From assembly GCA_965205905.1 (NCBI GenBank), contig CBDBHZ010000012.1, forward strand, positions 79,528-143,527: 64,000 nt of DNA, in the 5' to 3' direction. This DNA comes from Alphaproteobacteria bacterium. Its GTDB lineage: Bacteria > Pseudomonadota > Alphaproteobacteria > JABAAW01 > JAHZMA01. Under the pieces are notes generated by a model. It did no database searches. It saw only the letters and a list, made by a program, of their open reading frames with translations, and had not been told where the DNA came from. The position numbers were made by a program, and so were the translations under genes. This document shows positions 7,807 through 52,140 of this stretch, in pieces. How positions within the stretch are numbered: position 1 is the first letter of the stretch; each line of letters opens with the position of its first letter.

Positions 7807-10800
7807 ATGATTAGATTATTTACTTTGCTATTATTAGCACTATTTTTAACGGCTTGCAGTAGCGATACTGTTGGCACAAATTCGGACGGTGATGTCAACA
7901 ATAGCGGCGATGGTAATAATGGCGGTGGCGGTGATGTTTTCACGCCAAGCAACACGGCACTTCTTAATCTGTTTGAAACAAAAGTGGCTGCAAATCCGAA
8001 AGACACCAAGATTGGCGAACATACATCGCTTGCTGCGATTGCGGATGAGATAATTATATTGCAAGGTCTAACAGTCGGGTTATATGATAGCACTGATTAT
8101 ACGCGTGGGGCAACAAGCACAGCATGGACTGATACTGCTAATCTGCAAATTGCCAGAGAAATCACCCCCTTGCGAATCACAGAATCAGCAGTTTCTCTTG
8201 CATTTGGTGGTGCGGGCGTGATGACAAGCGCAACCGCTTATGCCGATTCTGATATTGCGAATGTGGCTGCTGATAGAAACTCTGTTTTCGGCTTTAATTC
8301 TGATAATATGGTGTATATCAGCTGGGGCGTAAACCAAACGACTGAAAATTTAGCGAGTGGTGAAACAACAGGCACACTCACCAATATTGACGGCATGATG
8401 ATTGCAGGCATTGAAACTGCTAGCATTATCGGTGCAGGTAGAGTTGATTTTACAGGCAAGGGTGCAGGCGTTTATGGTACGAAAACTGGTAATATTGCCT
8501 CAAGCCAAAATGTAACATTTGGTGTAACAGCCGCAGTTGATTTCACTGATAGAGATGTTATTATCAGCACTGATAATGATGATGATTCGCTTGATAGCAC
8601 ACTTAATTTTACCACAGCCGCTATCAATTATGGCGGTAGCAATCTTATCAATTATAGCTTTGATGGTTCTACGGAACAGCCGGCTGTCAATGGCATGTTA
8701 GGTCAGCTTGATGCGCGTTTTTATGGTGGTGGCACTGAAGAATTTGGTGGCACATTCATATTAACGCAAGCTGATACAGGCTATTATTATGGTGCTTTTG
8801 GTGCATCACGCAAAGGGGTTACGCCTTTTGTGGCGGGTACAGTGCCACTTGCTCTTAACAGGCTTGGCATGGTAGCTTCAAAAAATCCGCAAACGACTGA
8901 TGTTAAAGGCAATGATTCGCTTGGCACTGTTGCTGGTGAAGCTGTTATCTTGCAAGGTTTAACTGTGGGGCTGAATGATAGCACTGAATATCGGCGTGAG
9001 AAAACGAATGCTTTATGGACTACTGAAGCGAATCTACAAATTACACAAGGGCTGACTGCGACGCACATCACATCATCAGCGGCATCTCTTACATTTGGTG
9101 CAGCTGGTACGATTACAAGCGCAATCGCTTATGCCGATGAAGATTATGCGAATTTGACTGCTGATAGAAGTGCGGTTTTTGGCTTTACTTCTGAATATAT
9201 GGCTTATATTACGTGGGATACAGATGAATCGTTGAATATAGATGATAATACCGCGCTGACGCAAACCGTTACCGATAGTAACGGCATGATGATTGCAGGC
9301 ATTGAAAATAATGTTATCAATATCTTTACTGCGGGTAGGGTTGACTTTAAAGGCAAGGGTGCGGGTGTTTATGGCACGAAAACGGATAAGCATAAAACTG
9401 AATTTAATGTAACCATTGCTGCTGATTTTGATGAAAGTATGTTGAATATCACCACCTCTGAAACCGCTTGCACAGATAATTGCACGCAATTTAACGCGCC
9501 ACCTTATCTTAATTTTAGCACTGGTTTGTTCAGCTATACGGACAATAATATCAGCACGAATTTAACACTTGATGGCACTCTAACAGGCACGCTTGATGCA
9601 AAATTCTATGGCAGTAACGCGCAAGCAACTGGCGGTGGCGCGCAAGAATTTGGTGGTGCATTTGCGTTAGCCCAAGAAGATACCCGCTATTATTATGGCG
9701 TATTTGGTGCAAGTCGCAATGGGGTCGTACCGTTCGTTCCTAGCGATACAACCACTTTTAACGCGCTTGGCACAGTAACAAACGCGAATACGCAAAACAC
9801 TAATATTGGCACACATACCTCACTTGCCACTGTTGCGACTGATACTGTTATCTTGCAAGGTTTAGCGGTTGGGCTGCAAGATGCAACGATTCATACGCGC
9901 TATAAAGATGATGCATGGACTGATAGCGCGAGCGAGTTTCAAAGTGTAAGAACAATTAACGCATCACGCATTACGTCATCAGCTGCTTCTCTCACATTTG
10001 GCGCAACGGCTGGCACGATTACAAGCGCGACCGCTTATGCTGATGCTGATTATGCCACTGCGACTGCCAATAGAAGCATCGGTAATTTTACCGCCAATCA
10101 TCTGGTGCTTGTTGAATGGGGGCAAGATGAATCCTTTAGTTCAAATGCGTCAGGGGAAACCCAAACTATCACCGATATTGACGGCATGATGATAGCGGGT
10201 ATTGAAACCACGTCGGTGCCTACAGGTGCAGGTAATGGCAAAGCTACTTTTATGGGGCGCGGTAAGGGTGTTTATGGTAATATTACTTTAAGTGATGCTG
10301 TAACATTTGATGTGGAAGCGGAAGTTGTTTTCACGAATAACACGATAAGTTTTAAGGCTGAAAATACGGCTTGTGATGTTGGTACAACCTGTGCAACAGG
10401 CGTAACAGCATCTGACCTTAATTTCGCTATAAGTTCGCTCATCTATACTGGCAATAATATCACGACTTCCCTTACCAATATTGATGGTATGAATGGTCAG
10501 CTTGATGCACGTTTTTATGGTAACAGTCAAGCTTTTGAATCCGATGGTAGCGTTACGGGTGCGAATGAATTAGGTGGCACATTTTTAGTCGGCAATGCAG
10601 ACAACTATTATTATGGTGCATTCGCCTCTGCACGTGGTGCGATTGATTTCACTTTCAATAGCGGAGACACAAAAGCTATTAATACGAATGTTGGCGATAT
10701 TACTGTCGCCTCAACTCCGCCTAATAGTGTTGCAACAACTGGTATTATAGATAGCACAAACAGCACTTTGCAAGGTTTGGCTGTTAGCTTGGATGATAGC

Positions 10801-13800
10801 ACTAAATACTTGCGTCCGAATGCCCAGACAAATAGTAATTGGAATCTTAATGATACAAATAATCTGAATATCAATAGGGTGTTTGCTGTATCACAGACGG
10901 CATCAACTGGAACGATGCCTGCGGTCTCTCTCACATTTACTGCTGGTGCTATCACGGGCTTCACTGCTTATGCTGATGCCGAATATACAGGCACGACTGT
11001 GGATAGAAAAGACATTTTTGGTTTCGCCAATAATTCTTCTTACATGGCGTATGTTACATGGACGCAAAATGAAACCTTTAATGCAAGCGTAACAGGGGTT
11101 GAACAGAATGTTACCAATATTGATGGCATGATGATTGCGGGTATTGAAACTGGCGCCATGCTTAGTGATGGTAAAGTTGACTTTACGGGTAAAGGTAAGG
11201 GTGCATATGGCACAAATGACGGCACTAGCATTACAGATTATGATGTATCATTTAATGTAACCGCCGCCGTTGATTTTAAGCAAGGCAATGTTAATATCAT
11301 CACCGATAGCACAAGCTGCACAGCCAATTGTAACTCTGTTACTCTTGCGCCAGACTATCTTAATTTCACCACTGGCGCATTCAGCTATGGCAGTAATGAC
11401 GGCACAACGGATTTAACACTCAACAATCCTCAGGTTAATACAAATCTAGTAGGTGATATTGATGTCCGTTTCTATGGTAATGATGCTGATGATGAGGGGC
11501 TGATTGGTAGCAATGAATTTGGCGGCACCTTCGCACTCGCAAATGCCACTAACTACTATTATGGTGCATTTGGTGCGAATCGTGGCGATGTTTTCGTGAG
11601 TTCTAGCACCTCTGCAATTAATGCGGTTGGCGTTATCTCAATGGATGCAGATAATCCCGTAACCACCATTCCATCAGCGACGACTCTTACAGGCAATCTT
11701 ACTCTGAAAGGTTTGGCATTATCGCTTGATGATGAGGCAACTTACACACGCTATAAAAAGACAAGCGCATGGATGGATGCGACTGAAACGCAGATTGCGC
11801 GTGCTATCACACTGAATCGGGTTACCAAATCAGGTGCTTTGATTGATTTTGCAACTGGCACGGCAACAACAATCTATGCCGATGCAGATTATACTGTGAG
11901 CGATGCGAATGTAACCGCCACGATTGATAGAGACACAATCTTCGGATTTGCTACTGACTCAAATTATATGGCGTATGTTGAATGGGCGCAAACCGAAACT
12001 GTGGCGAACCTTGATAGTGGCAATACATTATCAGAAGATAGCTTCACTAATATTGATGGCATGATGATAGCGGGTCTTGAAACTGGCAGCATTATCGGCG
12101 ATGGCAAGGTTGACTTTTCGGGTAAAGGCAAGGGTGTCTATGGCACAACAGCCGGTGGTGCGGTTACAGTCTATGATGTGGCATTCGGTGTTGCAGTTGC
12201 GGCTAATTTCACAGCAGGCAATGTTACTGTTGTTACTGATACCACAACTTGCATAGCTAATTGTAACGGTAATACTGCGCCAAACTATCTGAATTTCAAC
12301 ACTGGCGCATTTAGCTATGGCAGTAATAATGGCACAACGAATCTAGCGCTTAACAATCCATTGACTGGTAATAACATAGCAGGCACGCTTGATGTGCGCT
12401 TCTATGGTGGTGGCACAGAAGAATTTGGTGGCGCATTCGCGTTATCAAGTGCGAATAACTACTATTATGGCGCGTTTGGTGCAAGCCGTGCAGGGCATGA
12501 TTTATTTCAGGGTTCAGACATAACCACTCTTAATGCGCTTGGCACAGTAGTGGCAACAAGCACTGTAAATCCTAGCACAGCCACCACGCTTACGGGCAGT
12601 CTTACTTTGCAAGGTTTAGCGGTATCGCTTAACAGTGCTGATGAATATACGCGCTACAAAGATGATGCTTGGAATGTTACTTTGGCTGAATTGCAGATTG
12701 ATAGGCAAGTTACGCCAAATCGCGTTACTGATTCAGGCGTTGCGATTGATTTTACGGGTGATACGGTAACAACAATCCATGCGGATACAAATTATACTGT
12801 GAGTGATGCGAATGTAACCGCTACGGTTGATAGAGACACAATCTTTGGTTTTGCATCTGACTCCAATTATATGGCGTATATCAGCTGGAGCAAAGATGAA
12901 TCCTTTAATTCGAGTGCGTCAGGGGAAATGCAAACCGTTACCGATATTGACGGCATGATGATTGCGGGCATTGAAACCGCTAGCATTATTGGTGCGGGCA
13001 GGGTTGATTTTATAGGCAAGGGCAAGGGTGTTTATGGTACGAAAACCGAAAGCTTTGATACGGTATTTTCTGTAACCGCTAAAGTTGATTTTGATGAGCG
13101 GGATATGTTGCTCAGCACCACAACGGAAGCCTGCACGAATTGCAACAATTTTGATGTATCAAGACTTGATTTTACGAATTTATCGTTAGGTTTTGAAAGT
13201 GCTGGCGCTTCAGTCAATAGCATCAGTCAAGCTGTAACGCTTGATACCACACTAACAGGCACGCTTGATGCGCGTTTTTATGGTGGTGGCACGGAAGAAT
13301 TTGGTGGCACATTTGCATTGGCACAAGCCGACATAGGCACAATTGATGGGCGCTATTATTATGGTGCTTTTGGTGCATCACGCAATGGGGTTACGCCGTT
13401 CGAGCCGAGCGATACAACCACCATTGATGCGCTTAACACAACCTCAAACGCAAATCCGCAAAGCACTGATATTGGCACACATACGAGGCTTTCCGCTGTT
13501 GCAGCTGATACCGTAACTGTGCAAGGTTTAGCGGTTGGGCTGAAAGATGCAACAATACATACGCGCTATAAAGATGATTTATGGACTGTTGATGCCAGCG
13601 AGTTTCAGACTGGAAGAACACTCACCGCATCGCGCATTACAGGTGCGTCTGCCTCTCTCACATTTGGTTCTGCAGGCACGGTTACAAGTGCAATCGCGTA
13701 TGTTGATGCAGATTATGCCACTGCCACTGCCAATAGAAATATCGGTGGCTCTAACTATAACTATCTGACTCTTGTAGAATGGGGACAAGATGAATCTTTT

Positions 13801-16800
13801 GGCACAGCTAATATGGCACTAACCCAAACTGTTACCGATATTGATGGCATGATGATAGTGGGTATTGAAACTGCCGATTTAACAATATTCTCTGGCAGCA
13901 CCACATTTACGGGCAAGGGTAAAGGCGTTTATGGCACGAAAACTGGCAATGTTGCCTCAAGCTATGAAACATCATTTACTGCAAGAGCCATTGTTAATTT
14001 TGATACAGACAGGGTAAATATCACCACCACTAGCACATCCTGCACAGATAATTGTAGCGGTGTTACCGTGCCTAGCTATCTCAATTTCACCATAGATTAC
14101 TTCGATTATGATGGCAACAGCAAGGCGGTAACGCTTGATAACACGCTAACAGGCACGCTTGATACGCGTTTTTATGGTGATGTGGTGCAAGAATTTGGTG
14201 GTGCATTCGCGTTTGCCGAAGCTGATACGCGCTATTATTATGGTGCATTCGGCGCAAAACGTCCGTCTTATGTCTATTCTCTTGATGCCCCACAAACATT
14301 TAATGATAATGATTTAGTAAGCTTTGATGATTTGCGTCGCAAGAGCACAGTTGGCAATGCGTTGAAAATCGCTTCTGCTGTTGAGCTTAAAAGAAGTAGT
14401 GGGTCTAATCAAACTCTTAGTATCGCAGACGCGATCGCTGAATTTAACTATAATGCGGATGATGAGTTTAGTTCATTGATTCTCTATTTAGATGGTCAAA
14501 GATATAGCACAACCAATCTTGATGCTAGTGATATAACTGAAGATGCTGTTTCTGATTTGTCACCCGATTCTTATTCTGGCAGCAATACGCCTAATAGGCT
14601 TCAGTTAAGTAAAAGCACTTACTATTTTGCTGATGTGCCAGAATATATGGCGTTGATTAATTGGACATCGGAATCATCCCAGAATATTAATAATCGGAGT
14701 TATGGCTATGCGATGGTTGGTTATGAAACAGATGGTGATGATATTCCTAGCGCGGGTGATATTACATTTACTGGCGAAGGACATGGGATTTATTATACTG
14801 GCAGTGACTTTGAAGATATACGTTTTACGGCGACTGCCATTGTTAATTTTGCGACCCCAAGCATCGCTTTCAGCACCACAGATACATGCCTTGCCTTTAC
14901 TTCTTGTAGCGACACACGGAGTTTCCTCAATATTGACACTACTTTAAGCTACACAGCTGGCACAAAAGATATCAGTGGCGCGGTTACAGCCGTGGGCGAT
15001 GGCGGTCAATTAACAGGCACGGTAAGTGCCAGATTTTACGGTGATTCAGCGCAGGAATTTGGTGGCACATTTAGCCTATTAAATAGTGGTGCAGACACAG
15101 ATTATGTGGGTTTTTTCGGGGCTAATCGTGTCTTTGTTCCAGAATTTGATAAGCCAACAGATTTTAATCATAATGGTTTAACCAGCTTTACGGATGATGC
15201 CCGCAATGGCACAAGCAATAATGCTTTCAAAATTGCAGGGCTTGTGGCGATGAAAGATACTGCTTCTGAGGCAAGAAGTATTAGCACCAGCACTGATGCT
15301 GTGCTTGAGCTTAGCTATGAGCTTGATGGTGATTTTGCCGCTACGAATGGCATGGCATTATATTGGGGTGATGACCGTTATCGCGCACTTAGGGCTAATA
15401 CTAGTAATTCCACTGCGGATGTACTTCGACCTTACTCTACAGATAAAACAGCGGGTGGCAATATTGGGGTGATGAAAATCGATAAAAGTAGCATTCTTTT
15501 TGACTTTGATTCAGAAAATATGGCAGTGTTTGGATTATCTTTGACAGATAGTGGTGATAGCTATAATATTTATGGTATGACTGGTTTTGAAACAGCTGAT
15601 GATAATATCCCGACATTGGATAATGGCTTCTTCTTTACGGGCAACGGAGAAGGGAAATATGGCAGATATGTAAGTGGTTTGGGATATTCAGACTCAATAC
15701 CTACATATTTTGAAGTTACTGCCCATGTTGATTTTATCAGCCGTAACATCACCGTAACAGGCGAAAATACCTGCGCCTCTGGCAATTATTACAGCAGTTA
15801 CGATGATTGTGTGGCTAGCGCTAATTTGTTTAGTCAGCTTGATTTTACGGCTACCTTAAGCTATAACGCAGGCGATAATGATATTACTGGCGCGATTCAA
15901 ACGTCAGGTAGCAATAGCACATTCGACCGCGTAAGTGGCACGGCAACGGCACGTTTTTATGGCATAGGCACTGATGCAGCAACAGAATTAGGTGGCACAT
16001 TTAGCATGGTTAGCACAACTGGTAGTGTTGCTGAGCAGGATACCTATATTGGTTGGTTCGGTGTAGATGCAGGCACGTTCCCTCTGCTTGTTGATATTGA
16101 TGCGAATACTATCGGCACCAGCGCTGGTGGCACACATGCGATTAGCACGAATTATGGCTCGGTTGCAACGGCATCAGCAGGTGCAAATACAATGAATGTA
16201 CCAGCCTATAAGCTAAAAGCCCTTACGGTGCAAACAGTCAAGAGCAACACATATACCCGCCCTGATACTGCTACAGCATGGGATGTAACAAGCCATAAAA
16301 CCGGTGAACATGTTCAGCTTTCAAAAGTGAGTGGCTCAGTTCTTGAAATAAAATATGGACAACATCAGTGGGACGCTGACAAGGTTGCTATTAGTCAAAT
16401 AAAAACTTATGTAGGCACGACAACCAATGTAAGTTTTTTTGCTTCTACCAGTAATACTCCCTATGACCTTACAGGTCAAATTCAGTCTGCACAAAGTGAT
16501 GGCAGAAGCAGTCGCTTAACCCTGATACATGATGTTGACCCTGACTATTCTGACACTCTCCAAACCGAATATGTGGCATTGGTGGCATGGAATGAAGATT
16601 TAGCACTGCCTGCTTTATCAACAACCGCGCTTACTGATAGCCGTGCCTATGAAGATAGAGGCTATATGGTTGCAGGTGTTGAAACTGCTGGCACAGCCAT
16701 CCCCGGTAGTGGCACAGCAGTTGGTTTTACAGGTGGCGGTGTTGGCACTTATGAAGCATCAGATAGCCCGCTACTGAAAAGCACCCACGTATTTAAAACG

Positions 16801-17109: not shown

Positions 17110-17155
17110 TATATGCGGCTTGCCCCTACTTTCGTGGGGTCGGTTTATGTATCAA

Positions 17156-17175
17156 GGGGTAAGAAACCTTACCCC
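17156..17175. terminator. Intergenic 8-bp GC-rich hairpin (GGGGTAAG-aaac-CTTACCCC) between the convergent giant gene 1 and glcF
   Basis: Read directly. It has no flanking U-tract, so an intrinsic-terminator role is uncertain. It shares the motif 'tatcaagggg' with the intergenic repeat elements at 25.0 and 25.8 kb. Confidence 0.3.
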
Positions 17176-17190
17176 GTCTTCACCACAATT

Positions 17191-18411
17191 CTAGCGACTA
17201 ATACTAATGTCTAACAATTCCACCCAATGGCTGATAGGGGTGCTGGTGTTGCTTTGCAGATGCATTTGGCAACCAATATTAGCGGTAACAATCTGTGCAG
17301 GATTGGCGATAGTCAGCGCTTTTAATTTATTATCACGCAAGGCTTTGGCAGTCTTGGGTTGCAAAATAGAATATGTGCCAGCCGAACCACAGCATAAATG
17401 CCCATCTTTGGTGGGGGCGAGTGCAATGCCCGCTTTGGCAAATATCTGTTCAATCACGCCATCTAATTTCTGCCCATGTTGCAATGTGCAAGGGCAATGC
17501 AATACAATAGACTGCTGATGAGCATTCACCTTAATCGCCTGCCAATCTTCGGCAATAATCACTTCGCTAATATCCTTACTGAGTGCGCTGATTTTTTGTG
17601 CCTTATCACGATAGGCAGGGTCATCTTTCAGCAATTTATCATAATCTTTCAGCATCACCCCGCAACCTGATGCGGTGCTGATAATCGCCTCTGCGCCTTG
17701 CTCCACATCGTGCCACCATATATCAATATTGCGCCTGATGGTCGCCAAAGTGCGTTCGTGAAAATCCAGATGATGGGTCACCGCCCCGCAACATTGCACT
17801 TGCTGATGTTCACGCACCGCAATATTGAAGCGGTTTAACAAACGGGTTGCGGCTTGATTGGTTTCAGGTTTTGCCACCGATTGCACACAGCCTGATAATA
17901 ATATCATTTTGCGCTTACAATCGGGCTGATTGATGATGGTGCGTGTTTGTTTTTCAGGGATTTTGCGCTTCAATTCACCCCATAATAACGGCTTGCATAA
18001 CTGCCCTAATCGCAATAATAACCCAAATCTTTTTGGAAACGGCACAATCAATATCAGCAATTTTCTGCTGAATCGTGCCCCTAATGGGCGCGTAGTTTTC
18101 TCATCAATTAACTGCCGTCCAATATCAATCAACTGCCCATATTGCACATTAGAAGGGCAGGTCGTTTCGCAATTACGGCATGTCAAACATTGGTCAAAAT
18201 GGATTTGCGTTTTATCGGTGGCATTGCCTGTTTCCAGCATTTGCTTTATCAGCGAAATCCTGCCACGTGGTCCATCGCGCTCATCACTAAAATGCTGATA
18301 GGTAGGGCAGGTGGCGTTACAAAAACCGCAATGCACACATGCGCTAATAATCTGTTTTGCCTGCTTCGCTTGCGGCGTATCACGATAAGATTCATGCAAT
18401 TTTACATCCAT
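17191..18411 (-). CDS. glcF: Glycolate oxidase iron-sulfur subunit
   Basis: 406 aa with two 4Fe-4S ferredoxin motifs (CVHCGFCNATCPTYQ; CLTCRNCETTCPS) and a C-terminal CCG-type Cys-rich domain. It lies downstream of glcD and glcE. Confidence 0.85.
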   Translation of the reverse strand: MDVKLHESYRDTPQAKQAKQIISACVHCGFCNATCPTYQHFSDERDGPRGRISLIKQMLETGNATDKTQIHFDQCLTCRNCETTCPSNVQYGQLIDIGRQLIDEKTTRPLGARFSRKLLILIVPFPKRFGLLLRLGQLCKPLLWGELKRKIPEKQTRTIINQPDCKRKMILLSGCVQSVAKPETNQAATRLLNRFNIAVREHQQVQCCGAVTHHLDFHERTLATIRRNIDIWWHDVEQGAEAIISTASGCGVMLKDYDKLLKDDPAYRDKAQKISALSKDISEVIIAEDWQAIKVNAHQQSIVLHCPCTLQHGQKLDGVIEQIFAKAGIALAPTKDGHLCCGSAGTYSILQPKTAKALRDNKLKALTIANPAQIVTANIGCQMHLQSNTSTPISHWVELLDISISR

Positions 18412-18413
18412 AA

Positions 18414-22304: not shown

Positions 22305-22351
22305 TATTTATCTCCTCAATTCTTGCGATATTATGATATTCATGCCCATAT

Positions 22352-25092: not shown

Positions 25093-25299
25093 CTATTTTT
25101 CTGTGGGCTCTAATGCGCGGGTGGGGTCTCCAACGATGATGGCGCGTTGCAACATATCCAGACGTTCAGGTGTCATAATGCTTTGTGGCACATAATCATC
25201 TCGGTTGATATATTCCTCGATGCCTTCGATAAGTTCTCTTTCTTCTTCATCGCAATAGCCATCAATGAATGGTTCAAATGATTCCATTTCTTTTTTCAT
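25093..25299 (-). CDS. Hypothetical small acidic protein (68 aa)
   Basis: ORF with a 4-nt overlap (translational coupling) to the upstream 122-aa ORF. No family recognised. Confidence 0.4.
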   Translation of the reverse strand: MKKEMESFEPFIDGYCDEEERELIEGIEEYINRDDYVPQSIMTPERLDMLQRAIIVGDPTRALEPTEK

Positions 25300-31771: not shown

Positions 31772-31807
31772 GATTTCTATCCTTTTAACATAGCGATAGA
31801 TAAAATT

Positions 31808-31836: not shown

Positions 31837-31877
31837 TAGTGGTTATGGAAATTTTGATAATATCAGCGAGATATAAC

Positions 31878-31905
31878 TTGACTATCATTTGATATTGCTT
31901 ATGAT
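31878..31905 (+). promoter_or_regulatory. Candidate sigma70 promoter of giant gene 3: -35 TTGACT (31878-31883), 16-nt spacer, -10 TATGAT (31900-31905)
   Basis: Read directly in the 166-bp divergent intergenic region; the ATG is at 31938. Confidence 0.4.
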
Positions 31906-31937
31906 ACAGGGTGGTTTTGTTATTTGAGGATTAAGTT

Positions 31938-42380: not shown

Positions 42381-42384
42381 CATC

Positions 42385-45300
42385 ATGAACAAATATTTTT
42401 CTATCATCACATTATTAATGGTTTCTATTTTTTTGAATGGCTGTAGCACAGAACGCGGTGGCAGTGGCATTGTGAGCTCTGGCGTTGTGAGCGATGATGT
42501 GTTTATCGCTGATAGCATTAAGAAAATCGATACTGATGGGACTTATACAACTGCTGCCCCCTATGCTTCTTTAACGGCAGCATCGGCTGATATTGATAAT
42601 CAAAACGATAAGATATTCACCTTGCAAGGGTTGGCGGTACAAGGTAGTCAGGTTACCAATTACACTGCCAGTGGTTCTTTGGGGTGGAATCAAGAGGGTG
42701 AGACAAGCATCACTGTTGCCACCATCACAGCGCCTGCTGTATCTCTTACTTTTGATGAAGATGGCATGATGTCGGAAGTAACCGCTTATTTTGCTGATAA
42801 AACCTATAAGTATGATATTGCGCTTGATGAGAGCGTGTCTGCATCTGCTACGCTTATAGATACAAAAGATATTACCAGTGGTGCACAAACCGATGCCACT
42901 ATCGCCACGCTTACTGTAGATAGAACCGAGATTTTCGGCTTTGCTGACAATCAAGGTAACGCACTTGAGTCGAATTATATGGCGTATATTGGCTGGAATT
43001 TTGAAAGAACGCAAGGCGACCCCAACCGATTAAGTTCGCTTAGCAGTGATAAAGATACGGCTTATAGTATTAATGGCAGTATGATTGCGGGCATTGAAAC
43101 AGCGAGTGCGAATATTCCTAGCAATGGTAAGGTGGAATTTATCGGCAAGGGACGTGGGTTTTACAGCCATGTTGATAAAGGCACAGCAAGCCATGCCACC
43201 ATATTTGATGTTACCACTGATGTTGATTTTGTTGCAAAAACAGTGGATGTTAATAGCAAGAATACCATGCGATGTAGTGATAAGAATAAAGCCAGTAGTT
43301 GCACAACTGCCCTAAATGGACTTAATTTTGGCACGACAGAAACATTCATTTACATTATCGGTGATGCGGTTGGTTTTCGTGGTGATGTTTCATTGAAAGC
43401 GAATAAAACTTTTACGGGTACAATTGATGCGCGTTTTTATGGTGGCAGAGCGCAAGAGCTAGGCAGTACATTTGCGATGCGTGATGAAACAGGTGGCTAT
43501 TATTATGGCGCATTTGGTGGTGAGCGAGAGGGGGTTGAAGCATCGCCTTTATTGGATGCCACAATAGCTGATGAGACGATAACGCTTCCAAATGATGTTA
43601 TCGCGCCATTGATTCCCATTGATATTACGACCGCCAACCCTTATGAAAATCTGACTGCTATTGCAGGCACTGATAAACGTGTGGTGCTGAATGCGTTATC
43701 GGTTTATCAAGATAATACCACGCAATATATACGGACACTGAATCGGGATTGGGCAACAGATGCTGATAAGGTAACAACAACCAGTATCGTCAGGCTTGCT
43801 GGCTCTGCGGCATCGCTTGTTTTTGCTGGCGATAATCAGGGTGCAACGCTTTACGCGAAAGAGATTTATACCAATGATGATGCGACTATTATTGTTGATA
43901 GAAGCACGATTTTTGGTTTTGGTTCTAGTTATATGGCCTATATCAGCTGGGATGATATAGATAATGAATTTGATAATGATAACACGGGCTTAACGGGTGA
44001 AGTTGTTGATATTAGTGGTAAGATGCTTGCTGGTATTGAGACCAATGATATGAATATCCCCTTAACTGGCGAGGTTTCCTTTAACGGCAAAGGGCGTGGC
44101 ACTTATGGCAATGTAACGACAAGCGAGGATACTGTGTTTGATATAACAGCAGAGGTTGATTTTGTTGGCAAGAATGTTACAACAATTAGTAGCAAGAACA
44201 CATGCAAAGCGTTTGATGGTGCTAAATGTGGCGTTGGTGGTTCTGATAGGCTTGATTTTCTCAATTTCACATCAGCGATATTAAGTTACGCTGATACAGA
44301 TAATGCGACAGTCAATCATATCAGCGGTGCTGTTCATGCAGATGGTTTGGCGGGCACGGTTGATGCACGTTTTTATGGTGGCGCAACCGAAGAATTTGGC
44401 GGTACATTCGCGCTTAACGATAGTTCAAATTATTATTATGGGGTGTTTGGTGCGTTGCGTGGTGGCATTGCTGCATCAACAATATTTGATAATAACATAG
44501 TTGACGAGACGGTAATGCTTCCAGCTGATGTTACCATCAGCACTGGCAATAATTTGCTTAATAATACGAATGATGGTGATATTGTAACGTTGAAAGTGCT
44601 ATCATTTTATCAAAATGATAGCACCGATTATACGCGGGCGGAAAATCGGGATTGGGGCACAGCGGATGAGCGAAAAACAACCAGCGTGGTCAGGATGCTA
44701 GGTTCTGCGGCATCGCTTAGTTTTGATGGTGGCGGTAATATATCAGGCGTAACGGCTTATTTGAAAGATTCCACGCACACGGCTGACCCAAGCAAAGTGA
44801 AGCGCGGGACTGATTTTTTCGGGTTTGATTCAAACTATATGGCTTATATCAGCTGGGATATAGATAATCATTTTGATGATGATAGCGAGGGTTTAAAGGC
44901 GCGCGTTGTTGATTCTAGCGGTGCGATGCTGGCGGGTATAGAAACGACTAATTTGCTAGATAATACAGCTGGCACGGTTGAATTTAAGGGCAGAGGGCAG
45001 GGTGCTTATGGCGATGCGGACGACGATTATGCCACCATCTTTGATGTAACCGCATCAGTTAATTTTGTTGATAATAATATAACGATTTACACTGAAAACA
45101 CGTGCCAAGCAGATGATTGCACGAAGCAGCCAGAGAATAGTCTTAATTTCAACACAGGCGCAATCGGTTTTGCTGATAATAGCATCAGCAAAAGGAACTT
45201 AAATGTAAAAGGGATGGATGGTGCGCTTGATGCCCGTTTTTATGGTGAGAAAACGCGTGAATTTGGCGGCACATTCGGGTTTGCCAGTAATTTAAGCTAT

Positions 45301-48300
45301 TATTATGGCGCGTTCGGTGCGGAACGTGATGGTGTTGTTGCGCCGATTACATTGACTACTTTTAACCCGAATGGCGCAAATGTTTCAACCATCAATACTG
45401 CTATTGCTGCCAATAATCCTTCTTTCAACTCCCTTACCGATGTGGTTGATGCAGGTGATGGCAATGCTTTCACGATGCGTGCGCTATCAGCCTATGAATA
45501 TGATAACACAACCTACACACGCGTGAGTAACAATAAAGAGTGGAGCAGCAAAGCCGATAAAGCGCAAAGCATTTATATTGTAGGGCTTTCAGGCGCGGGC
45601 GCCTCGCTCACTTTTGGTGGTGATGGCAATATATCGGGCGCAACCGCCTATTTGAACGGCATCACATATACAACCGCTGACCTTACGGTTGATAGAAGCA
45701 CGATTTTTGGCTTTGCCTCTCACAATATGGCTTATATCAGTTGGAATTTGCAGAAAGCTGAAAGCGCGCTTGATAATGAAAGCGATTATTTATACGATTT
45801 CATCTTTGACGATGCAGGTATGATGCTAGCGGGTGTTGAAACCGCTGAAACTGTTTACGATATGGATGGCGATGTTGAAACGGAAGGCAAAATTCTCACA
45901 TTCGCTGCGGCTGAATTTACGGGCAAGGGCAAAGGCACTTATGGTACGGTTACCAATAATGTTCTCACGGGCTACAATACCATCTTTGATGTGACCGCAT
46001 CAGTTGATTTTGAGGGTAGGGCGGTAACAATTCGCAGTGAAAATACTTGCGAGGCGGTTACAAACCCCGATTGCACAGATAATGGCGTGAATCGGCAAGA
46101 TTTTCTTGATTTAAGCACATCGGCTTTAAGTTTTGTCAGTGCTCCTGATATTTATGGAGATAGCGTTGCTGTCAACAGCATCAGCGGTGATGTTGCGCTT
46201 GATAGCAGTAATATATTTAAAGGCACGCTTGATGCCAGATTTTACGGCTATGCTGGGCGTGAATTTGGTGGCACATTCTCGCTTGCCAACGCCAGCAGCT
46301 ATTATTACGGTGCGTTTGGTGCCAAGCGCGAGACGGTTTACAAGTTTGCTTTGGATGATGCGAAGATTGCGGCACCTGATAGACGAGATGCTCAATTTAC
46401 GCTAGATGCTCCTGATGTTTCACTTCATCATGCGATTAACGATGCAAGCGCCACAGAAGATAGAGAGTTTACGATGAATGCATTGGTTGTCAGTGCAAAT
46501 AATTACACTGATTATGCGCGTGCGCCCGGTGAAGCATGGGAAACATCGAATAGAAATAAAAAGTTTAGTCTGGGAAGAGTTGCAGGGTCGCATATATCAC
46601 TTACCATTGATGAAGATGGCAAACTATCTTATATGGTTGCGCGCGAATTAGGCAGCGGCTCTCTCACTGATGATGGCAAAGGCGATCAAACTTTATCAGC
46701 AGTTGATAGAAATGAGACGAACACTAGTCTAGACATCATCAACATATCGCGCCGTGAAGAGATATTTGGTTTCGTGATGACTGATATGGTCTATATCGAT
46801 TGGAACAGGAGTAATAAATTGCTTGCAATCGGTGATCCCGAAACAGAAGCCTTTATAGGCGGAAATCATGGCATGATGATTGCGGGTATTGAAACTGATT
46901 ATGCACAGATGCCTACCGCAAACGCAGTTGTTACTTATTCTGATGATGATGAAGAAGATGATTATGATATAGGTAATGATCATTATGCTATTGCAGTTAA
47001 ATTTACGGGCAAAGGGCGCGGCTATTATGCAAATCTTAAAACTGAAACTGGTTTTCATACTATCTTTGATGTAACGGCGCATGTTGATTTTGTTAGTGAA
47101 TATATAACGATTGATAGCGGCGCCCCTCTTAAATGCACAGATGTGAATGATTCAAGCACATGCTCTGCTTCAGGGCTTACTGGTTTTTATGCGATTGATG
47201 ATATATATTATAATGCTAATGATATAAGCGTTGATATTGCGCTTGAAAATGATTATCAATTTCAAGGCACGCTTGATGCGCGCTTCTATGGCGATGGCGC
47301 GCATAAATTTGCTGGCACTTTTGCCATGAGTGATAGTGATAATACGCGTTATTATTATGGTGCGTTTGGCGCGCAGAGAGAAACGGCGATTGAAGAATTT
47401 AACTTTGATAAAACATTGGCTGAAGAATCAGGGCCTAAATCAACATTAGACTATCTTACAGTCAACCAAACGCCACATGAGTCGCTTCATGCAGTGGCGG
47501 TTGCTGATGGCAAGAATGGTTTCACCACGAAAGCTCTGGCAGTCTATCAAAGCAATCATAAAGATTATGCCAGAGTGCCAAATAAAGCTTGGGATGATGC
47601 CAGCACTGATAAAGACCATAATATTAATCTCGGCAAACTTAGCGGTGCTGGTGCAACCATTGTTTTTGATGAAAATGGTAATATTTCAGGCTTTGCCACC
47701 TATTTATCATCTAACCCCTATATTGCCACCAATATCTATACAATTACGGTGGAAAATCCTGTCTCTAACAGTGATGTGGTTTCGCAAAATATTACGGATA
47801 CCGATACTCCTGATGATACCTCTACGGGCGTGATGAATCTGTATCGTGGTGAAAGCTTTTTTGGCTTTAACTCAGAATATATGGCATATATTGATTGGCG
47901 GGTAACCAGAACATTTGCTGATTTGGGTGATGACACCATTGATAGAAGCTATGATTATAGCGGTGCCATGATTGCGGGCATAGAAACGACAGACACAAAG
48001 CTTTCTAATAATTCATCAGGTATAGTGAACTTTAAGGGCAGAGGGCGTGGCTCCTATTACAACACCAACACGGGCATTGGCGAGCAAACAATCTTTGATG
48101 TAACCGCTAAACTTGATTTTGGCAATAAAAATGTTACCATCAATAGTGCCAACACCATTGCCTGTGCTGATTTCAGCAATATTGGCACTTGTGGCATTTC
48201 TGATATTGGTGAGTTTTCTACGGGCATTATATCTTATAGGGACAATCTAATGTATTCTCATAGTGCTCATAATAATATCAGTGGCGCTGTTAAAGCCAAT

Positions 48301-51300
48301 ATCGGCGCTGCCACCTTAACAGGCACGCTTGATGCCCACTTTTATGGTAATAAGGGTGGAATTGGTTCAAATGAAATAGGTGGCACATTTACCATGAGTA
48401 ATGAGGCATATTATTATTATGGTGTATTTGGTGCAGAAGGACTTTATGTTAACGTGAATAACATTGATTCCACTGTTAGCACCGATGAGGAATTCACCCA
48501 AAATAGCACAACTATGACCGCGCCAATAAAAGACAATCTTAATATAAATGGTCTAACAAGCTTTAATGATGATGCCCGCAAAGGCAAAAATAATAACGCT
48601 TTTAAAGTATCAACTTTTACAACCATGAAAGCAAATGATAATCAAACTATGGATATTAATAAATTTTCTGATGCTGTGGTTAGTGTTGATTTTTTAGGTG
48701 GTGGTGGTTATGACGATGGTTATATGGGTGATTTTAGACTTTATTTTGATGATAAAAAATATGACACCACTATGCAAGACTCAAGTAAAAGATGGCGTAA
48801 CACGAACTATGTTTATGTAGCTTATCCATCAGATATTGACACTCACCAGATTATGTTAGACAGATCTGTAGGGGAACGGAATTTTGGTGCTGCTTTTCGT
48901 CCCGGCTTTACTCCCGATTATATGGCAAAAGTTGGATTTTTCACTCCGTCCGGCTATAGAGAGACTATAGGTTTTGGCATCATCGGCTTTGAAACTGCTG
49001 CTAACAATATGCCGATGGCAAGCAGTGCTGTATTTGCTGGCAGAGGGCGGGGGCACTACATGGATAATGGCGGTCAGGTGAACACATATTTTGATGTCGC
49101 CGTCAATGTTGATTTTAACATGCGTGATATTGAATTCTTTGCTATTAATACATGTAGCGATGATTCGTTTTTATTTTGCAGGCAAGGTGCTCATTCGGAA
49201 AAGCATTACTTGGATATGATAGCAAATTTAAGCTATACAGCGAGTAATAACACCATCAGCGGTGGTATTACAACTGCAGGCGGTGGGCTTAATGAAACAT
49301 TAACAGGCACCATCGATGCCAGTTTTTATGGCACAAAAGGCACAGGGTATGATAATGCGGCAAAAGAATTTGGTGGCACATTTCTTGTGAGTAATAATCG
49401 CGAAGCCTATGGCGGTTGGTTTGGCACTAGAAGAGTAGCAAGCATTGCGAACCTAGCAACCACTATTACGACGCCTACACTTAATCAACATAATCTAACA
49501 AGCTTTGATGATGCTAACGGTGCCAATACAACCGGCACCGCCCTTCCAGCAATGGCTGTGCAGATAACAAAACAGAAAATGGGTGATAAAACAATTACCA
49601 CCGACAAAATAACGACACCTGTGGTTGAAGTGAGTTTTGGTAATTATGATGAATTTTACACTTATCATGTTAATGATGAATCAGATAGTGGTTGGGGTCG
49701 GCTTAACGCTCCTGTATTCGCTGGCTTTAACATCTATTGGGCTGATAAAAAATATAGCACAACTGGCGCAAATAATAACAGCGCTAATCACATCAAACAC
49801 ATAAATTTTTATGATAATAGCATGCCTACTACCAGCGCTGGTGAGACACCTTCTGAGATTCGCCTCAGCAGATACAATGGATGGGCTGCTACCTACGACG
49901 GCAAAGGACATTATTTTGGGTTTCTTCCTAAATATATGGTAAGAATTAACTGGATGTTGGATGAGAATGCATATGAAGCTGAGGGGCATGGTATCGCTGG
50001 TTTTGAAACTGATGGTAGCAATATTCCGAGCGTGGGGCATATCGAATTTAAAGGCAGAGGGCATGGACGCTATTATTCTAACTCAAGTGCCGAGTATTTT
50101 TACTTTGATATAACCGCCAATGTTAATTTTGCCAGCCGTTATGTAACATTAGAAAGCTCAAATACATGCAATAAAGCTTACCGTTACAATGCAGCATGTT
50201 CGAATGCAAGTGCGCGGCGAGAAGATTTTGATTTTAATGGGATATTAAGTTACAAGGCAGGTGAAAATAAAATGAGTGGTGGGGTTACCAACTTTGTTGA
50301 GTCATCAAAATTATTTGGCACAGCTGAAGCAAGATTTTACGGACCAGAGTTTCAAGAATTTGGTGGCACATTTGCCATGCAAAATACCGATGCAGCCTAT
50401 GTCGGCTATTTCGCTACCGAACGAATTACCAGTGTTATCCCAACTTCGCCTACTCCCTCCAGCAACAGCAACCATAACAATCTTGTTAGCTTTACTGATG
50501 ATGCCCGTAACGATACAAGCGGTAATAAATTTATAGCCATCGCCACCAACATCACCAAACATAGCGATGGCACAATTACCAATGGCGATTTCACCACTGC
50601 CGCGGTTGAATTAGCCTATGATGCTGATGGAGATTTCAGTGATGCCAGTCTCTATTTGCCTGATAGAAAATATAGCACAACCGCTAGCAGTGTTGGCACA
50701 AGCGATGATATTACTGATAACGCGCCTGTTGTTGCTGATAACACTCATGATACACCTGCTACTTTATTGTTATCTAGAAATACCGATAAATTTACTTTTA
50801 CGCCTGAATATATGGCAAGTCTTTATTGGCGGGTAACTAAAGATGCTTACGAGACCAGTGGCTATGCGATGACTGGTTTTAAAACTGATGGCAATAATTT
50901 TTATAGCCATGGTGGTGTTAAGTTCTCAGGTGGTGGGGAAATGAGCTATTCTAGTAGCAGCAGTAACATTACGAGTTCGTTTTCTACAACTGCCAATGTT
51001 AATTTTATAGATTATAATATCAGTCTAACAACAGACCAGAATGATAACAATAATGATTTTCTCAATCTTACGGGCGATTTAAGCTATAATCCTAAAGTAA
51101 ACCGCCTTACTGGCACGGTTAAAACGGCGGGCAATGATAAAAATCATGATGCGCTTGACGGCACAGAATTATCAGGCACCGCAGATGCCAGATTTTATGG
51201 TCCCGATCTAGAAGAATTAGGTGGTATATTTAATGTCAGCAATGCTGATGCAAGCGCCGTTGGTTGGTTCGGGTTAGAAAAACTTGGTGAAACTTTTACT

Positions 51301-52140
51301 AACTATCCTGAAATACCAACAACATTTAATGAACATAATCTAACCAGTTTTACTGATAATAATCGCAAAGGCACAACGGGTAATGCGCTAAAAGTGTCTT
51401 CGGTTGTCAGTTTAATCGATGGTAATGATATATTCACGGATGTGAGAAGTGACGGTTCGGTGGTTGTTTTTGATTATGATGATGGTGGTAATTTTGATAA
51501 CTTCACATTATATATTGATGATAAAAAATATGGCACGAGTAATGTTAATGGCGACGATATTAGTATTAGTGATACATCGCCTACTATTTATGGCGAGCAT
51601 CATGCGCTTCGCGAATTCTTTCTTGACAGACAGAGTGGTGCTTTTGGGTTTACGGCCAATTATATGGCGAGAGTTTATACGCTGACAGCATATAATTATT
51701 ATTACACGAACACAACTTACGCCATGACTGGTTTTGAAACGATGGGCAATAATATCCCTATGAATGGCGCTTCTGTTAACTTTTCAGGCAGGGGCGAGCT
51801 GAAATATCATGGCACTAATTTTAACACTGGTACTGCTTTTGATGTTACTGCCACTGTTAATTTTGAAACCCGCAATATCAACCTAGAAACCGACCATAAT
51901 GATGAGGAACGACGCTATCTCGATATGACGGGAAATTTAAGCTATGAACCTAATACAAACGCACTTACGGGCACATTTACAACCGTAGGCGATAGTAGCA
52001 ATGTTGAGAAGCCGTCATTAACAGGCACAATAGAAGCCCGCTTTTACGGGCCAGCGGCAGAAGAATTTGGTGGCACATTCAGCGCAAGCATACCTGAATC
52101 AGAGATAGGCTATATCGGCACGTTCGGCGCAAAAAAGTAA
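42385..52140 (+). CDS. Giant surface lipoprotein 4 (3251 aa): colinear paralog of gene 3, ~6 type-1 + 4 type-2 lobe modules
   Basis: Real start ATG at 42385 (MNKYFSIITLLMVSIFLNGCSTERGGSG..., RBS GAGGAA), 4 nt after the gene-3 stop. The track ORF start at 42337 is read-through. The first ~140 nt are near-identical to the gene-3 start. YYYGAFG markers fall at ~43495, 44421, 45295, 46295, 47350 and 48410. It lacks the counterpart of gene-3 module 2. Confidence 0.85.
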   Translation: MNKYFSIITLLMVSIFLNGCSTERGGSGIVSSGVVSDDVFIADSIKKIDTDGTYTTAAPYASLTAASADIDNQNDKIFTLQGLAVQGSQVTNYTASGSLGWNQEGETSITVATITAPAVSLTFDEDGMMSEVTAYFADKTYKYDIALDESVSASATLIDTKDITSGAQTDATIATLTVDRTEIFGFADNQGNALESNYMAYIGWNFERTQGDPNRLSSLSSDKDTAYSINGSMIAGIETASANIPSNGKVEFIGKGRGFYSHVDKGTASHATIFDVTTDVDFVAKTVDVNSKNTMRCSDKNKASSCTTALNGLNFGTTETFIYIIGDAVGFRGDVSLKANKTFTGTIDARFYGGRAQELGSTFAMRDETGGYYYGAFGGEREGVEASPLLDATIADETITLPNDVIAPLIPIDITTANPYENLTAIAGTDKRVVLNALSVYQDNTTQYIRTLNRDWATDADKVTTTSIVRLAGSAASLVFAGDNQGATLYAKEIYTNDDATIIVDRSTIFGFGSSYMAYISWDDIDNEFDNDNTGLTGEVVDISGKMLAGIETNDMNIPLTGEVSFNGKGRGTYGNVTTSEDTVFDITAEVDFVGKNVTTISSKNTCKAFDGAKCGVGGSDRLDFLNFTSAILSYADTDNATVNHISGAVHADGLAGTVDARFYGGATEEFGGTFALNDSSNYYYGVFGALRGGIAASTIFDNNIVDETVMLPADVTISTGNNLLNNTNDGDIVTLKVLSFYQNDSTDYTRAENRDWGTADERKTTSVVRMLGSAASLSFDGGGNISGVTAYLKDSTHTADPSKVKRGTDFFGFDSNYMAYISWDIDNHFDDDSEGLKARVVDSSGAMLAGIETTNLLDNTAGTVEFKGRGQGAYGDADDDYATIFDVTASVNFVDNNITIYTENTCQADDCTKQPENSLNFNTGAIGFADNSISKRNLNVKGMDGALDARFYGEKTREFGGTFGFASNLSYYYGAFGAERDGVVAPITLTTFNPNGANVSTINTAIAANNPSFNSLTDVVDAGDGNAFTMRALSAYEYDNTTYTRVSNNKEWSSKADKAQSIYIVGLSGAGASLTFGGDGNISGATAYLNGITYTTADLTVDRSTIFGFASHNMAYISWNLQKAESALDNESDYLYDFIFDDAGMMLAGVETAETVYDMDGDVETEGKILTFAAAEFTGKGKGTYGTVTNNVLTGYNTIFDVTASVDFEGRAVTIRSENTCEAVTNPDCTDNGVNRQDFLDLSTSALSFVSAPDIYGDSVAVNSISGDVALDSSNIFKGTLDARFYGYAGREFGGTFSLANASSYYYGAFGAKRETVYKFALDDAKIAAPDRRDAQFTLDAPDVSLHHAINDASATEDREFTMNALVVSANNYTDYARAPGEAWETSNRNKKFSLGRVAGSHISLTIDEDGKLSYMVARELGSGSLTDDGKGDQTLSAVDRNETNTSLDIINISRREEIFGFVMTDMVYIDWNRSNKLLAIGDPETEAFIGGNHGMMIAGIETDYAQMPTANAVVTYSDDDEEDDYDIGNDHYAIAVKFTGKGRGYYANLKTETGFHTIFDVTAHVDFVSEYITIDSGAPLKCTDVNDSSTCSASGLTGFYAIDDIYYNANDISVDIALENDYQFQGTLDARFYGDGAHKFAGTFAMSDSDNTRYYYGAFGAQRETAIEEFNFDKTLAEESGPKSTLDYLTVNQTPHESLHAVAVADGKNGFTTKALAVYQSNHKDYARVPNKAWDDASTDKDHNINLGKLSGAGATIVFDENGNISGFATYLSSNPYIATNIYTITVENPVSNSDVVSQNITDTDTPDDTSTGVMNLYRGESFFGFNSEYMAYIDWRVTRTFADLGDDTIDRSYDYSGAMIAGIETTDTKLSNNSSGIVNFKGRGRGSYYNTNTGIGEQTIFDVTAKLDFGNKNVTINSANTIACADFSNIGTCGISDIGEFSTGIISYRDNLMYSHSAHNNISGAVKANIGAATLTGTLDAHFYGNKGGIGSNEIGGTFTMSNEAYYYYGVFGAEGLYVNVNNIDSTVSTDEEFTQNSTTMTAPIKDNLNINGLTSFNDDARKGKNNNAFKVSTFTTMKANDNQTMDINKFSDAVVSVDFLGGGGYDDGYMGDFRLYFDDKKYDTTMQDSSKRWRNTNYVYVAYPSDIDTHQIMLDRSVGERNFGAAFRPGFTPDYMAKVGFFTPSGYRETIGFGIIGFETAANNMPMASSAVFAGRGRGHYMDNGGQVNTYFDVAVNVDFNMRDIEFFAINTCSDDSFLFCRQGAHSEKHYLDMIANLSYTASNNTISGGITTAGGGLNETLTGTIDASFYGTKGTGYDNAAKEFGGTFLVSNNREAYGGWFGTRRVASIANLATTITTPTLNQHNLTSFDDANGANTTGTALPAMAVQITKQKMGDKTITTDKITTPVVEVSFGNYDEFYTYHVNDESDSGWGRLNAPVFAGFNIYWADKKYSTTGANNNSANHIKHINFYDNSMPTTSAGETPSEIRLSRYNGWAATYDGKGHYFGFLPKYMVRINWMLDENAYEAEGHGIAGFETDGSNIPSVGHIEFKGRGHGRYYSNSSAEYFYFDITANVNFASRYVTLESSNTCNKAYRYNAACSNASARREDFDFNGILSYKAGENKMSGGVTNFVESSKLFGTAEARFYGPEFQEFGGTFAMQNTDAAYVGYFATERITSVIPTSPTPSSNSNHNNLVSFTDDARNDTSGNKFIAIATNITKHSDGTITNGDFTTAAVELAYDADGDFSDASLYLPDRKYSTTASSVGTSDDITDNAPVVADNTHDTPATLLLSRNTDKFTFTPEYMASLYWRVTKDAYETSGYAMTGFKTDGNNFYSHGGVKFSGGGEMSYSSSSSNITSSFSTTANVNFIDYNISLTTDQNDNNNDFLNLTGDLSYNPKVNRLTGTVKTAGNDKNHDALDGTELSGTADARFYGPDLEELGGIFNVSNADASAVGWFGLEKLGETFTNYPEIPTTFNEHNLTSFTDNNRKGTTGNALKVSSVVSLIDGNDIFTDVRSDGSVVVFDYDDGGNFDNFTLYIDDKKYGTSNVNGDDISISDTSPTIYGEHHALREFFLDRQSGAFGFTANYMARVYTLTAYNYYYTNTTYAMTGFETMGNNIPMNGASVNFSGRGELKYHGTNFNTGTAFDVTATVNFETRNINLETDHNDEERRYLDMTGNLSYEPNTNALTGTFTTVGDSSNVEKPSLTGTIEARFYGPAAEEFGGTFSASIPESEIGYIGTFGAKK
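42540..48440 (+). repeat. Intragenic tandem array of ~6 type-1 lobe modules in giant gene 4, followed by 4 type-2 modules to 52140
   Basis: Motif periodicity read from the translation. Boundaries are approximate. Confidence 0.65.

Follow-up and report, generated by a model that had tools for sequence, protein, structure and literature searches.

Introduction

Lipoprotein cargo of Slam carries a C-terminal eight-stranded barrel and passes unfolded through a DUF560 outer-membrane protein, with recognition of a C-terminal motif (PMC5449769, PMC9090332, PMC8406197). The published model of the type XI secretion system (T11SS) likewise combines a C-terminal specificity motif with unfolded threading of the cargo (PMC9090332, PMC12282271). 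Grossman et al. (2021) reported one or two TbpBBD domains per cargo, and Grossman et al. (2025; PMC12282271) described surface proteins of Sphingomonas and Psychrobacter with two to three handle-barrel pairs. Here we analyse four genes, g1 to g4, lying in a 64-kb window (the whole stretch of 64,000 nucleotides that was analysed) from an alphaproteobacterium. A preliminary description of this window had read them as giant surface lipoproteins of an undescribed class and had put the known members of the family at one or two lobes each, which is slightly outdated in view of the two to three pairs described since (PMC12282271).

The present analysis supports the view that g1 to g4 encode giant lipoproteins made of TbpB-like lobes. 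A literature search returned no paper on proteins with more than three lobes, nor any on sponge-associated lobe genes. Relatives of 2,000-4,500 aa are already named in public databases, although no paper on them was found. Poly-lobe proteins are an extreme extension of the known lobe family, present but unremarked in those databases.

Four genes built from tandem TbpB-like lobes

Gene g1 (7807-17109, +) encodes a predicted lipoprotein of 3100 aa (326 kDa, isoelectric point (pI) 4.2) with ten lobes, g3 (31938-42380, +) one of 3480 aa (375 kDa, pI 4.4) with eleven, and g4 (42385-52140, +) one of 3251 aa (351 kDa) with ten, while g2, on the minus strand, is broken into two pieces that together hold six. 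When module boundaries were cut after each ..FGA.(R/K), the four genes resolved into 37 modules of 279-377 aa (10 + 6 + 11 + 10), in agreement with the count of ..RFYG.. motifs (10 in g1, 2 + 4 in the two pieces of g2, 11 in g3 and 10 in g4). Thus the modules are tandem and number six to eleven per gene, as had been proposed, whereas the earlier figures of about 38 modules and 280-330 aa needed correction. A common end motif had been claimed, and every module was found to close with ..(A/K)RFYG..E(F/L)GG(T/V)F..Y.G.FGA.(R/K).

All four genes scored above the gathering cutoff (26 bits) of the Pfam family PF01298 (TbpB_B_D), with 109.1 bits for g1, 29.2 and 72.4 bits for the 5' and 3' parts of g2, 193.8 bits for g3 and 148.4 bits for g4 (E-values from 1e-6 to 2e-57). 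Among the single excised modules, 31 of 36 matched TbpB_B_D at E<=0.01, the best at 1.9e-11, some of them with fewer than 26 bits. The resemblance to TbpB_B_D noted from the motifs in the preliminary description was in this way confirmed by profile. Apart from TbpB_B_D, Pfam detected in the lobe genes only a faint FHBP_C match; the handle models TbpB_A and TbpB_C gave no match there, and the same scan found no autotransporter, RTX, Big or cadherin domain, as had been stated before. Sequence-only comparison with the PDB was weak (E 5e-4 to 0.05), and its matches were always TbpB, LbpB or hemophilin.

Structure models of one lobe of each type were built with AlphaFold2, using the window's own paralogues as alignment. 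The type-1 lobe, module 2 of g1 (8800-9717, +), was modelled with a predicted local distance difference test score (pLDDT) of 86.8 and a predicted template-modelling score (pTM) of 0.86, and the type-2 lobe, module 11 of g3 (41493-42377, +), which is the C-terminal lobe of that gene and matches TbpB_B_D over its full length (positions 1-126 of 126), with a pLDDT of 87.0 and a pTM of 0.85. Both models show a beta-rich N-terminal handle followed by eight barrel strands (in module 2 of g1, handle at about aa 23-141 and barrel at about aa 154-305), which is the architecture that the preliminary description had anticipated. In Foldseek searches the best PDB matches of the modelled modules were exclusively TbpB, fHbp, NHBA, HpuA, LbpB and hemophilin (probability 1.00). 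According to the models each module is one predicted TbpB-like lobe, with a barrel of the canonical form and a handle that has diverged. At the level of the domain, membership of the TbpB/fHbp lobe family is shown.

Lobe types, divergence and selection

The modules fall into two clusters. Type-1 modules end in ..YYYGAFGA, and type-2 modules start with ..FN.HNLTSF.D..R..T..NAL and end in ..AYVGYFGA. Every gene has its type-1 lobes at the N-terminal and its type-2 lobes at the C-terminal side. In g1, m1-m7 are type 1, m8-m9 type 2, and m10 stands apart as a diverged lobe, loosely grouped with type 1; it gives the best Pfam barrel match in that gene. The order is m1-m7 type 1 and m8-m11 type 2 in g3, and m1-m6 type 1 and m7-m10 type 2 in g4; g2 has one type-1 and five type-2 lobes.

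Modules of one gene are only 30-50% identical to each other, and the four genes contain neither DNA tandem repeats nor near-identical DNA repeats, the single array returned by the tandem-repeat scan being 34 bp long and lying outside them (52882-52915). The arrays are therefore old and not an artefact of collapsed repeats in assembly. Genes g3 and g4 are collinear paralogues with 75-84% DNA identity over their N-terminal two-thirds. A single complete module sets them apart, g4 being without a counterpart of g3 module 2, and lobe number thus shifts when entire modules are duplicated or lost. For lobes that correspond between g3 and g4, the ratio of non-synonymous to synonymous substitution rates (dN/dS) was 0.32-0.50; these lobes are under purifying selection, which is relaxed as far as is common among surface proteins. 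This argues against untranscribed relics, a possibility that had been raised when the locus was first described.

With pI values of 4.2-4.4 the proteins are acidic, and Thr, Ala, Gly, Ser, Asp and Asn are abundant in them. A pair of Cys residues, no more and no fewer, is present in most lobes and points to a loop closed by a disulfide and to folding outside the cytoplasm. Identity between lobes is 27-32% in the handles and 40-41% in the barrels. Handles bind the ligand in TbpB, HpuA and hemophilin, and a variable handle on a conserved barrel would match, by analogy, the division of labour in the family, in which a ligand-binding handle sits on a scaffold.

N-termini, coding integrity and the broken gene g2

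All four N-termini have a basic n-region, a hydrophobic core, a lipobox Cys and a low-complexity Gly/Ser/Asp/Pro tether. By pattern inspection the lipoboxes are LFLTAC|SS in g1, LITLTAC|NG in g2 and FLNGC|ST in g3 and g4. The signal peptide of g1 (7807-7857, +) is MIRLFTLLLLALFLTAC, with the lipobox L-T-A-C and Cys17, followed by the tether SSDTVGTNSDGDVNNSGDGNNGGGGD; that of g3 is MNKYFYIITLLMVSVFLNGC, with Cys20. The lipobox Cys and tether described before are present in all four genes. A lipobox also lies within the first ~30 residues of nearly all complete relatives and, as far as inspection of patterns goes, is conserved throughout the family.

Four long open reading frames (ORFs) had been reported. 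Those of g1, g3 and g4 are intact as stated, and open frames of 3,100-3,480 codons in DNA of 43% GC make a chance origin impossible. The frame of g4 opens further upstream, at ATG 42337, but a start at 42385 was accepted because of an AGGAA Shine-Dalgarno site ahead of 42385, an MNKYF N-terminus as in g3 and a public gene call of 3251 aa. Only 4 nt separate the g3 stop from the g4 start, and the two genes are therefore probably co-transcribed. The divergent genes g2 and g3 are separated by 166 bp (31772-31937), and this intergenic region presumably harbours both promoters.

In contrast, the frame reported for g2, 31771-25938 (-), is not continuous. It consists of two pieces in different frames, 31771-29555 and 29426-25938. 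The 5' part (29555-31771, -; 738 aa) begins with the signal peptide MRHLLISTISVLSLITLTAC, with Cys20, and a GGSSGGGGG/DPDPAPAP tether; behind these come a lobe of type 1, a lobe of type 2 and the opening third of lobe 3, after which a premature stop ends the frame. The 3' part (25938-29426, -; 1162 aa) supplies the remainder of lobe 3 and three more type-2 lobes and ends in ..SFVGFFGADNPNN. A single-base frameshift inside module 3, at approximately 29590-29625 (-), separates the two. A relative (P0020) is intact across the equivalent stretch, and the frameshift is either a true pseudogenising mutation, making g2 a recent pseudogene, or a sequencing error. Phase variation was considered and rejected, since the site has no repeat tract, its longest homopolymer being 3. 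The mechanical ORF of g2 begins 39 codons upstream, at ATG 31888 (31772-31888, -); we place the start at 31771 because of the Shine-Dalgarno site AAGGA ahead of the ATG at 31771, the signal peptide and a public gene call (P0016).

Two small ORFs lie beyond the 3' end of g2. One of 122 aa (25296-25664, -), immediately downstream of it, has by eye one apparent hydrophobic, transmembrane-like segment; the other (25093-25299) encodes 68 aa and is acidic.

Relatives and their origin

When the first 638 aa of g1 served as query in a word-indexed search, only 24 proteins were returned, the best 45% identical. Those of them that carry a name all come from metagenome-assembled genomes (MAGs) of Alphaproteobacteria, where they are annotated as 'transferrin-binding protein-like solute binding protein'. 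When an alignment of 36 modules was used as a profile against 1.84 billion representative proteins, 1405 matched at E<=1e-3, 758 at <=1e-10 and 160 at <=1e-30. Multi-lobe proteins, from Alphaproteobacteria MAGs and metagenomes, head the list. About 30 representatives have at least six lobes, including proteins of 4491 aa with 14 matched stretches (P0029), 3331 aa with 10 (P0032), 3221 aa with 10 (P0030) and 3152 aa with 9 (P0031). A common plan runs through the family, with a lipobox and the order [type 1]n[type 2]m (9 + 5 in P0029), and the relatives carry ...G[YF]FGAKK at most 3 aa from their C-terminus. In some relatives, from assemblies of low coverage, the end is abnormal.

Retrieval of loci with lobe alignments gave three genome loci, all in one MAG, and seven short metagenome loci; tblastn of a plasmid collection with a type-2 lobe gave no match. 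All relatives traceable to a source came from the sponge Haliclona xena, as metagenome or MAG. This is the case for P0029 (metagenome JAHZIR01) and for the three genome loci L001-L003, which lie in MAG X_S6_bin.7 (JAHZMA01). At least five lobe genes occur in this MAG, of 707, 1012, 1079, 1841 and at least 1803 aa. The alphaproteobacterial lineage that goes by the placeholder name JAHZMA01 has been discussed beside nudibranch and coral symbionts (PMC13393909).

Three of these loci have neighbours worth recording. In L004, the gene of the 4491-aa, 14-lobe relative is adjoined by an 890-aa Peptidase_S8 (subtilisin) gene (14557-17229, -). The S8 protease NalP sheds LbpB and NHBA from the surface of Neisseria, and by analogy the L004 enzyme might be a shedding protease. 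In L001, from the sponge MAG (15-2138, + and 2273-3605, +), genes for an ECF-type (extracytoplasmic function) sigma factor and an EF-hand protein separate the 707-aa lobe gene from the tandem lobe genes of 1841 and at least 1803 aa, which follow further downstream, past an oppositely oriented HupE/UreJ gene (4401-5048). The placement of the sigma factor and EF-hand genes may reflect a regulatory link to the lobe genes. In L005, a sponge-metagenome contig, a 2384-aa lobe gene lies between an atpI-like gene and ATP synthase F0 genes (5258-15949). The giant lobe genes are scattered in housekeeping regions and are not clustered in an island.

Probable export to the cell surface

The best reading of g1 to g4 is that of lipid-anchored surface filaments, in which variable handles on conserved barrels would give a host-associated marine bacterium a multivalent means of attachment or capture. 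The chain would leave the cytoplasm by Sec and be lipidated at the lipobox Cys, as the family-wide sequence pattern suggests, and Lol would presumably carry it to the outer membrane. There, an outer-membrane protein of the Slam/T11SS type, with its gene elsewhere in the genome, may pass the unfolded chain to the surface, with recognition through the C-terminal barrel, the most canonical TbpB_B_D barrel in every gene. Sequential folding outside the cell would then give a beads-on-a-string filament on its Gly/Ser/Asp-rich tether, a picture in which the fold is that of the in silico models and the arrangement of the lobes is a prediction.

T11SS-like surface display of the lobe proteins seems to us fairly probable. 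In g1, g2, g3 and g4 alike Pfam matches best at the last barrel, and only 0-5 aa separate the last lobe from the stop, which fits the published model of C-terminal specificity. Membership of the class of Slam-dependent surface lipoproteins is in part supported, the lipobox and the C-terminal barrel being consistent with it. In known systems only ~52% of Slam genes adjoin a lipoprotein gene (PMC5449769); such non-adjacency being common, a missing neighbour does not exclude the Slam route. Adjacency does occur in the wider family, as in Psychrobacter, where a TbpB_B_D gene encoding ~2,040 aa (OLF40724.1) adjoins a T11SS outer-membrane protein gene (PMC12282271 supplement). Small relatives with the type-2 C-terminal motif, retrieved from metagenomes, have one or two lobes and in three loci are directly followed by a gene bearing a signal peptide (L007 ~1132-2364, L011 ~1720-2925 and L012 ~1177-2517, all +). 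The Pfam matches of these Slam-like neighbours are sub-threshold, with a SlipAM/DUF560 barrel at 19.9 bits in L007 and 19.1 bits in L012 (cutoff 22) and a TPR match in L012, and TPR_Slam was seen only in L011. Judged by these similarities, the divergent outer-membrane proteins may represent an unrecognised branch of T11SS.

A number of observations weigh against surface display by such a route, and against the reading as a whole. A DUF560 gene neighbours none of the eight giant-gene loci (the window, L001-L006 and L014), and a scan of the window's ORFs of at least 150 aa found no SlipAM/DUF560 (Slam/T11SS) gene; this family scan covered the ORFs outside the lobe genes except 31968-32531 (-) and 58373-59437 (+), both of which overlap other genes. 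Profile searches that covered the window and L001-L006 turned up no Slam gene from this lineage. A profile of six Rhodobacteraceae T11SS outer-membrane protein sequences had no match in the window or L001-L006 and, in a large protein database, found only Rhodobacteraceae proteins, and a profile of the three divergent Slam-like neighbours recovered only itself. The NCBIfam model NF041636 (slam_lipo), in a scan of g1 and both parts of g2, gave 23.7 bits for g1, 18.9 for the 5' part and 26.5 for the 3' part against a cutoff of 80, and a profile comparison with SPO1272, a Ruegeria lipoprotein adjacent to a T11SS gene, was not significant (probability 2.8%). Asn at position -2 of the g3 and g4 lipobox (L-N-G-C) is atypical, yet it is conserved in relatives. 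Foldseek template-modelling (TM) scores were modest for the whole module (0.3-0.48) and 0.70 for the isolated NHBA barrel; the handles are therefore unlike known ones and give no hint of a ligand. The habitat of the window's organism is deduced from its relatives, and the lobe proteins are known here from genes alone. Finally, we know of no experimentally verified T11SS cargo near 350 kDa.

These points also bear on the rival view that the lobe proteins are not flipped by Slam at all, being lipoproteins that face the periplasm, or that reach the outside by some other route or by shedding, in a lineage without T11SS. Besides the absence of a Slam gene from all eight neighbourhoods examined and the slam_lipo scores below cutoff, it draws on the report that marine alphaproteobacterial T11SS genes seldom co-occur with TbpB_B_D genes (PMC12282271). 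However, 10-14 lobes of ~30 kDa each are hard to fit in the periplasm, and known Slam cargo likewise has its canonical barrel strictly at the C-terminus and ends in ...FGAKK. Moreover, the small relatives adjoin Slam-like genes, and Slam genes are often unlinked to those of their cargo. We regard this alternative as unlikely.

Possible roles of the lobe arrays

If the lobes are displayed, the filament would form a multivalent, multi-specific binding array and, by analogy, an adhesin or a binder of host factors. Any specific ligand is much less certain than T11SS-like display itself; host or particle macromolecules appear likeliest because the traceable relatives come from sponge microbiomes.

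A different role would be nutrient capture, in which the lobes bind a metal-carrying protein, haem or a corrinoid and pass it to a TonB-dependent receptor encoded elsewhere, their large number raising capacity in dilute seawater or host fluid. TbpB, LbpB, HpuA and the hemophilins are all among the top structural matches, and marine iron limitation is noted in the T11SS literature. On the other hand, the scan of window ORFs of at least 150 aa found no TonB-dependent receptor gene, hence no tbpA-like partner, and none lies beside the loci of seven relatives (L001-L006 and L014); nor do the window or these seven loci hold a gene for TonB, a haem oxygenase or an iron-regulated gene. The handles are also without an invariant His (the invariant residues being W, Y, R, G and F), whereas hemophilin ligates haem via His, and known receptor-coupled members have one or two lobes. 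Nutrient capture is thus in our opinion improbable as the role of these arrays.

That the genes are decaying relics or artefacts of repeat assembly with no functional protein, as the g2 frameshift and the abnormal ends of some low-coverage relatives might suggest, is highly improbable in view of three uninterrupted frames of 3,100-3,480 codons with Shine-Dalgarno sites and dN/dS of 0.32-0.50, of lobes only 30-50% identical and without near-identical DNA repeats, and of intact relatives of 2,400-4,500 aa in independent assemblies, and for g1, g3 and g4 it is largely refuted.

Multivalent attachment or capture at the surface, the reading that we prefer, has a more far-reaching form. It is conceivable, although we advance it with considerable reserve, that the proteins constitute a new class of filaments with 10-14 lobes and 330-480 kDa on uncultured, invertebrate-associated marine Alphaproteobacteria, used in attachment to host or particle and exported either by a T11SS that threads more than 3,000 residues or by a new route. 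A cargo of 350-480 kDa would be a stress test for the Slam/T11SS model, with its C-terminal signal and its unfolded, Skp-held chain, or else would point to another route; if the lineage should be without DUF560, a new route for surface lipoproteins would be implied. By analogy with the family, the variable handles on conserved barrels may be regarded as a natural library of binding modules and as candidates for host recognition by sponge-associated Alphaproteobacteria.

Neighbouring genes in the window

Among the products of the remaining genes of the window are enzymes of the homogentisate pathway, a glcDEF-like oxidase together with a TRAP transporter, two short-chain dehydrogenases, an aldehyde dehydrogenase and an MttB-family methyltransferase accompanied by an ABC transporter of the betaine type. 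The absence of Slam (DUF560) and TonB-dependent receptor genes from the window, as first described, was borne out among the scanned ORFs of at least 150 aa, and tRNA and Rfam scans of the window gave no match. GC content is 0.40-0.45 in the lobe genes and 0.41-0.47 in the flanks; recent horizontal acquisition was considered and rejected because the lobe genes match their flanks.

The DctQ (small subunit) gene of the TRAP transporter (22352-23581, -) is unusually long, at 409 aa, and has an N-terminal extension with a weak match to the TM2 domain. At 53698-58408 (-), the MttB-family methyltransferase gene adjoins genes for an OpuAC-type binding protein, a permease and an ATPase. This block looks like glycine-betaine-type uptake and demethylation, typical of marine heterotrophs.

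Comparison with known systems

The multi-TbpBBD proteins of Psychrobacter and Sphingomonas (PMC12282271) resemble the proteins of this locus: they too are lipoproteins in which handle-barrel pairs number more than two and a TbpB_B_D barrel comes last, and at least one of them is large (~2,040 aa). Compared by description only, they have two to three pairs, as against six to eleven here and 14 in P0029. Their N-terminal Pro-Thr stretches or ~12 PTD repeats and their long disordered loops are absent here, no PT/PTD repeat array occurring in g1 to g4, where g2 has only DPDPAPAPTDP. Their genes lie within six genes of a T11SS outer-membrane protein gene, whereas none such is near g1 to g4, and their hosts are Gammaproteobacteria and Sphingomonadaceae, in contrast to the uncultured marine alphaproteobacterial group considered here.

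TbpB and LbpB of Neisseriaceae, Pasteurellaceae and Moraxellaceae have two lobes instead of six to eleven. They are iron-regulated and paired with the TonB-dependent receptors TbpA and LbpA, whereas the window holds no such receptor gene, and the lobes here share only 16-21% sequence identity with them, TbpB_A and TbpB_C being undetected. fHbp, NHBA, HpuA, PmSLP/fIbp and the hemophilins are Slam/T11SS cargo with a single lobe, again as against six to eleven, and the ligands of such single-lobe cargo (factor H, heparin, haemoglobin, factor I and haem) are specific to vertebrate hosts. Hemophilins are in addition non-lipidated, with a signal peptide of the signal peptidase I type and a haem-ligating His in the handle. 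Here, in contrast, a lipobox signal precedes many lobes, and the invariant and near-invariant columns of the handles contain no His.

In size and layout the proteins resemble giant repeat adhesins (RTX/BapA-type, Big/cadherin and trimeric autotransporters), which share with them a mass of 300-400 kDa, a beads-on-a-string arrangement, an acidic composition rich in Thr, Asn, Asp and Gly and a likely location at the cell surface. The repeat unit differs, being ~300 aa of handle and barrel here and an Ig-like domain of ~100 aa in the adhesins, and so does the anchor, an N-terminal lipid here and a retention module of the type I secretion system (T1SS) or an autotransporter barrel there. The TbpB/fHbp lobe is known from pathogens of vertebrates, in which one or two copies bind host ligands, and it is a vaccine antigen. 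In g1 to g4 it is a repeat unit, used in the manner of an Ig-like domain, and the architectural and ecological range of the family is thereby widened, about five-fold in size and into marine symbiont-like bacteria.

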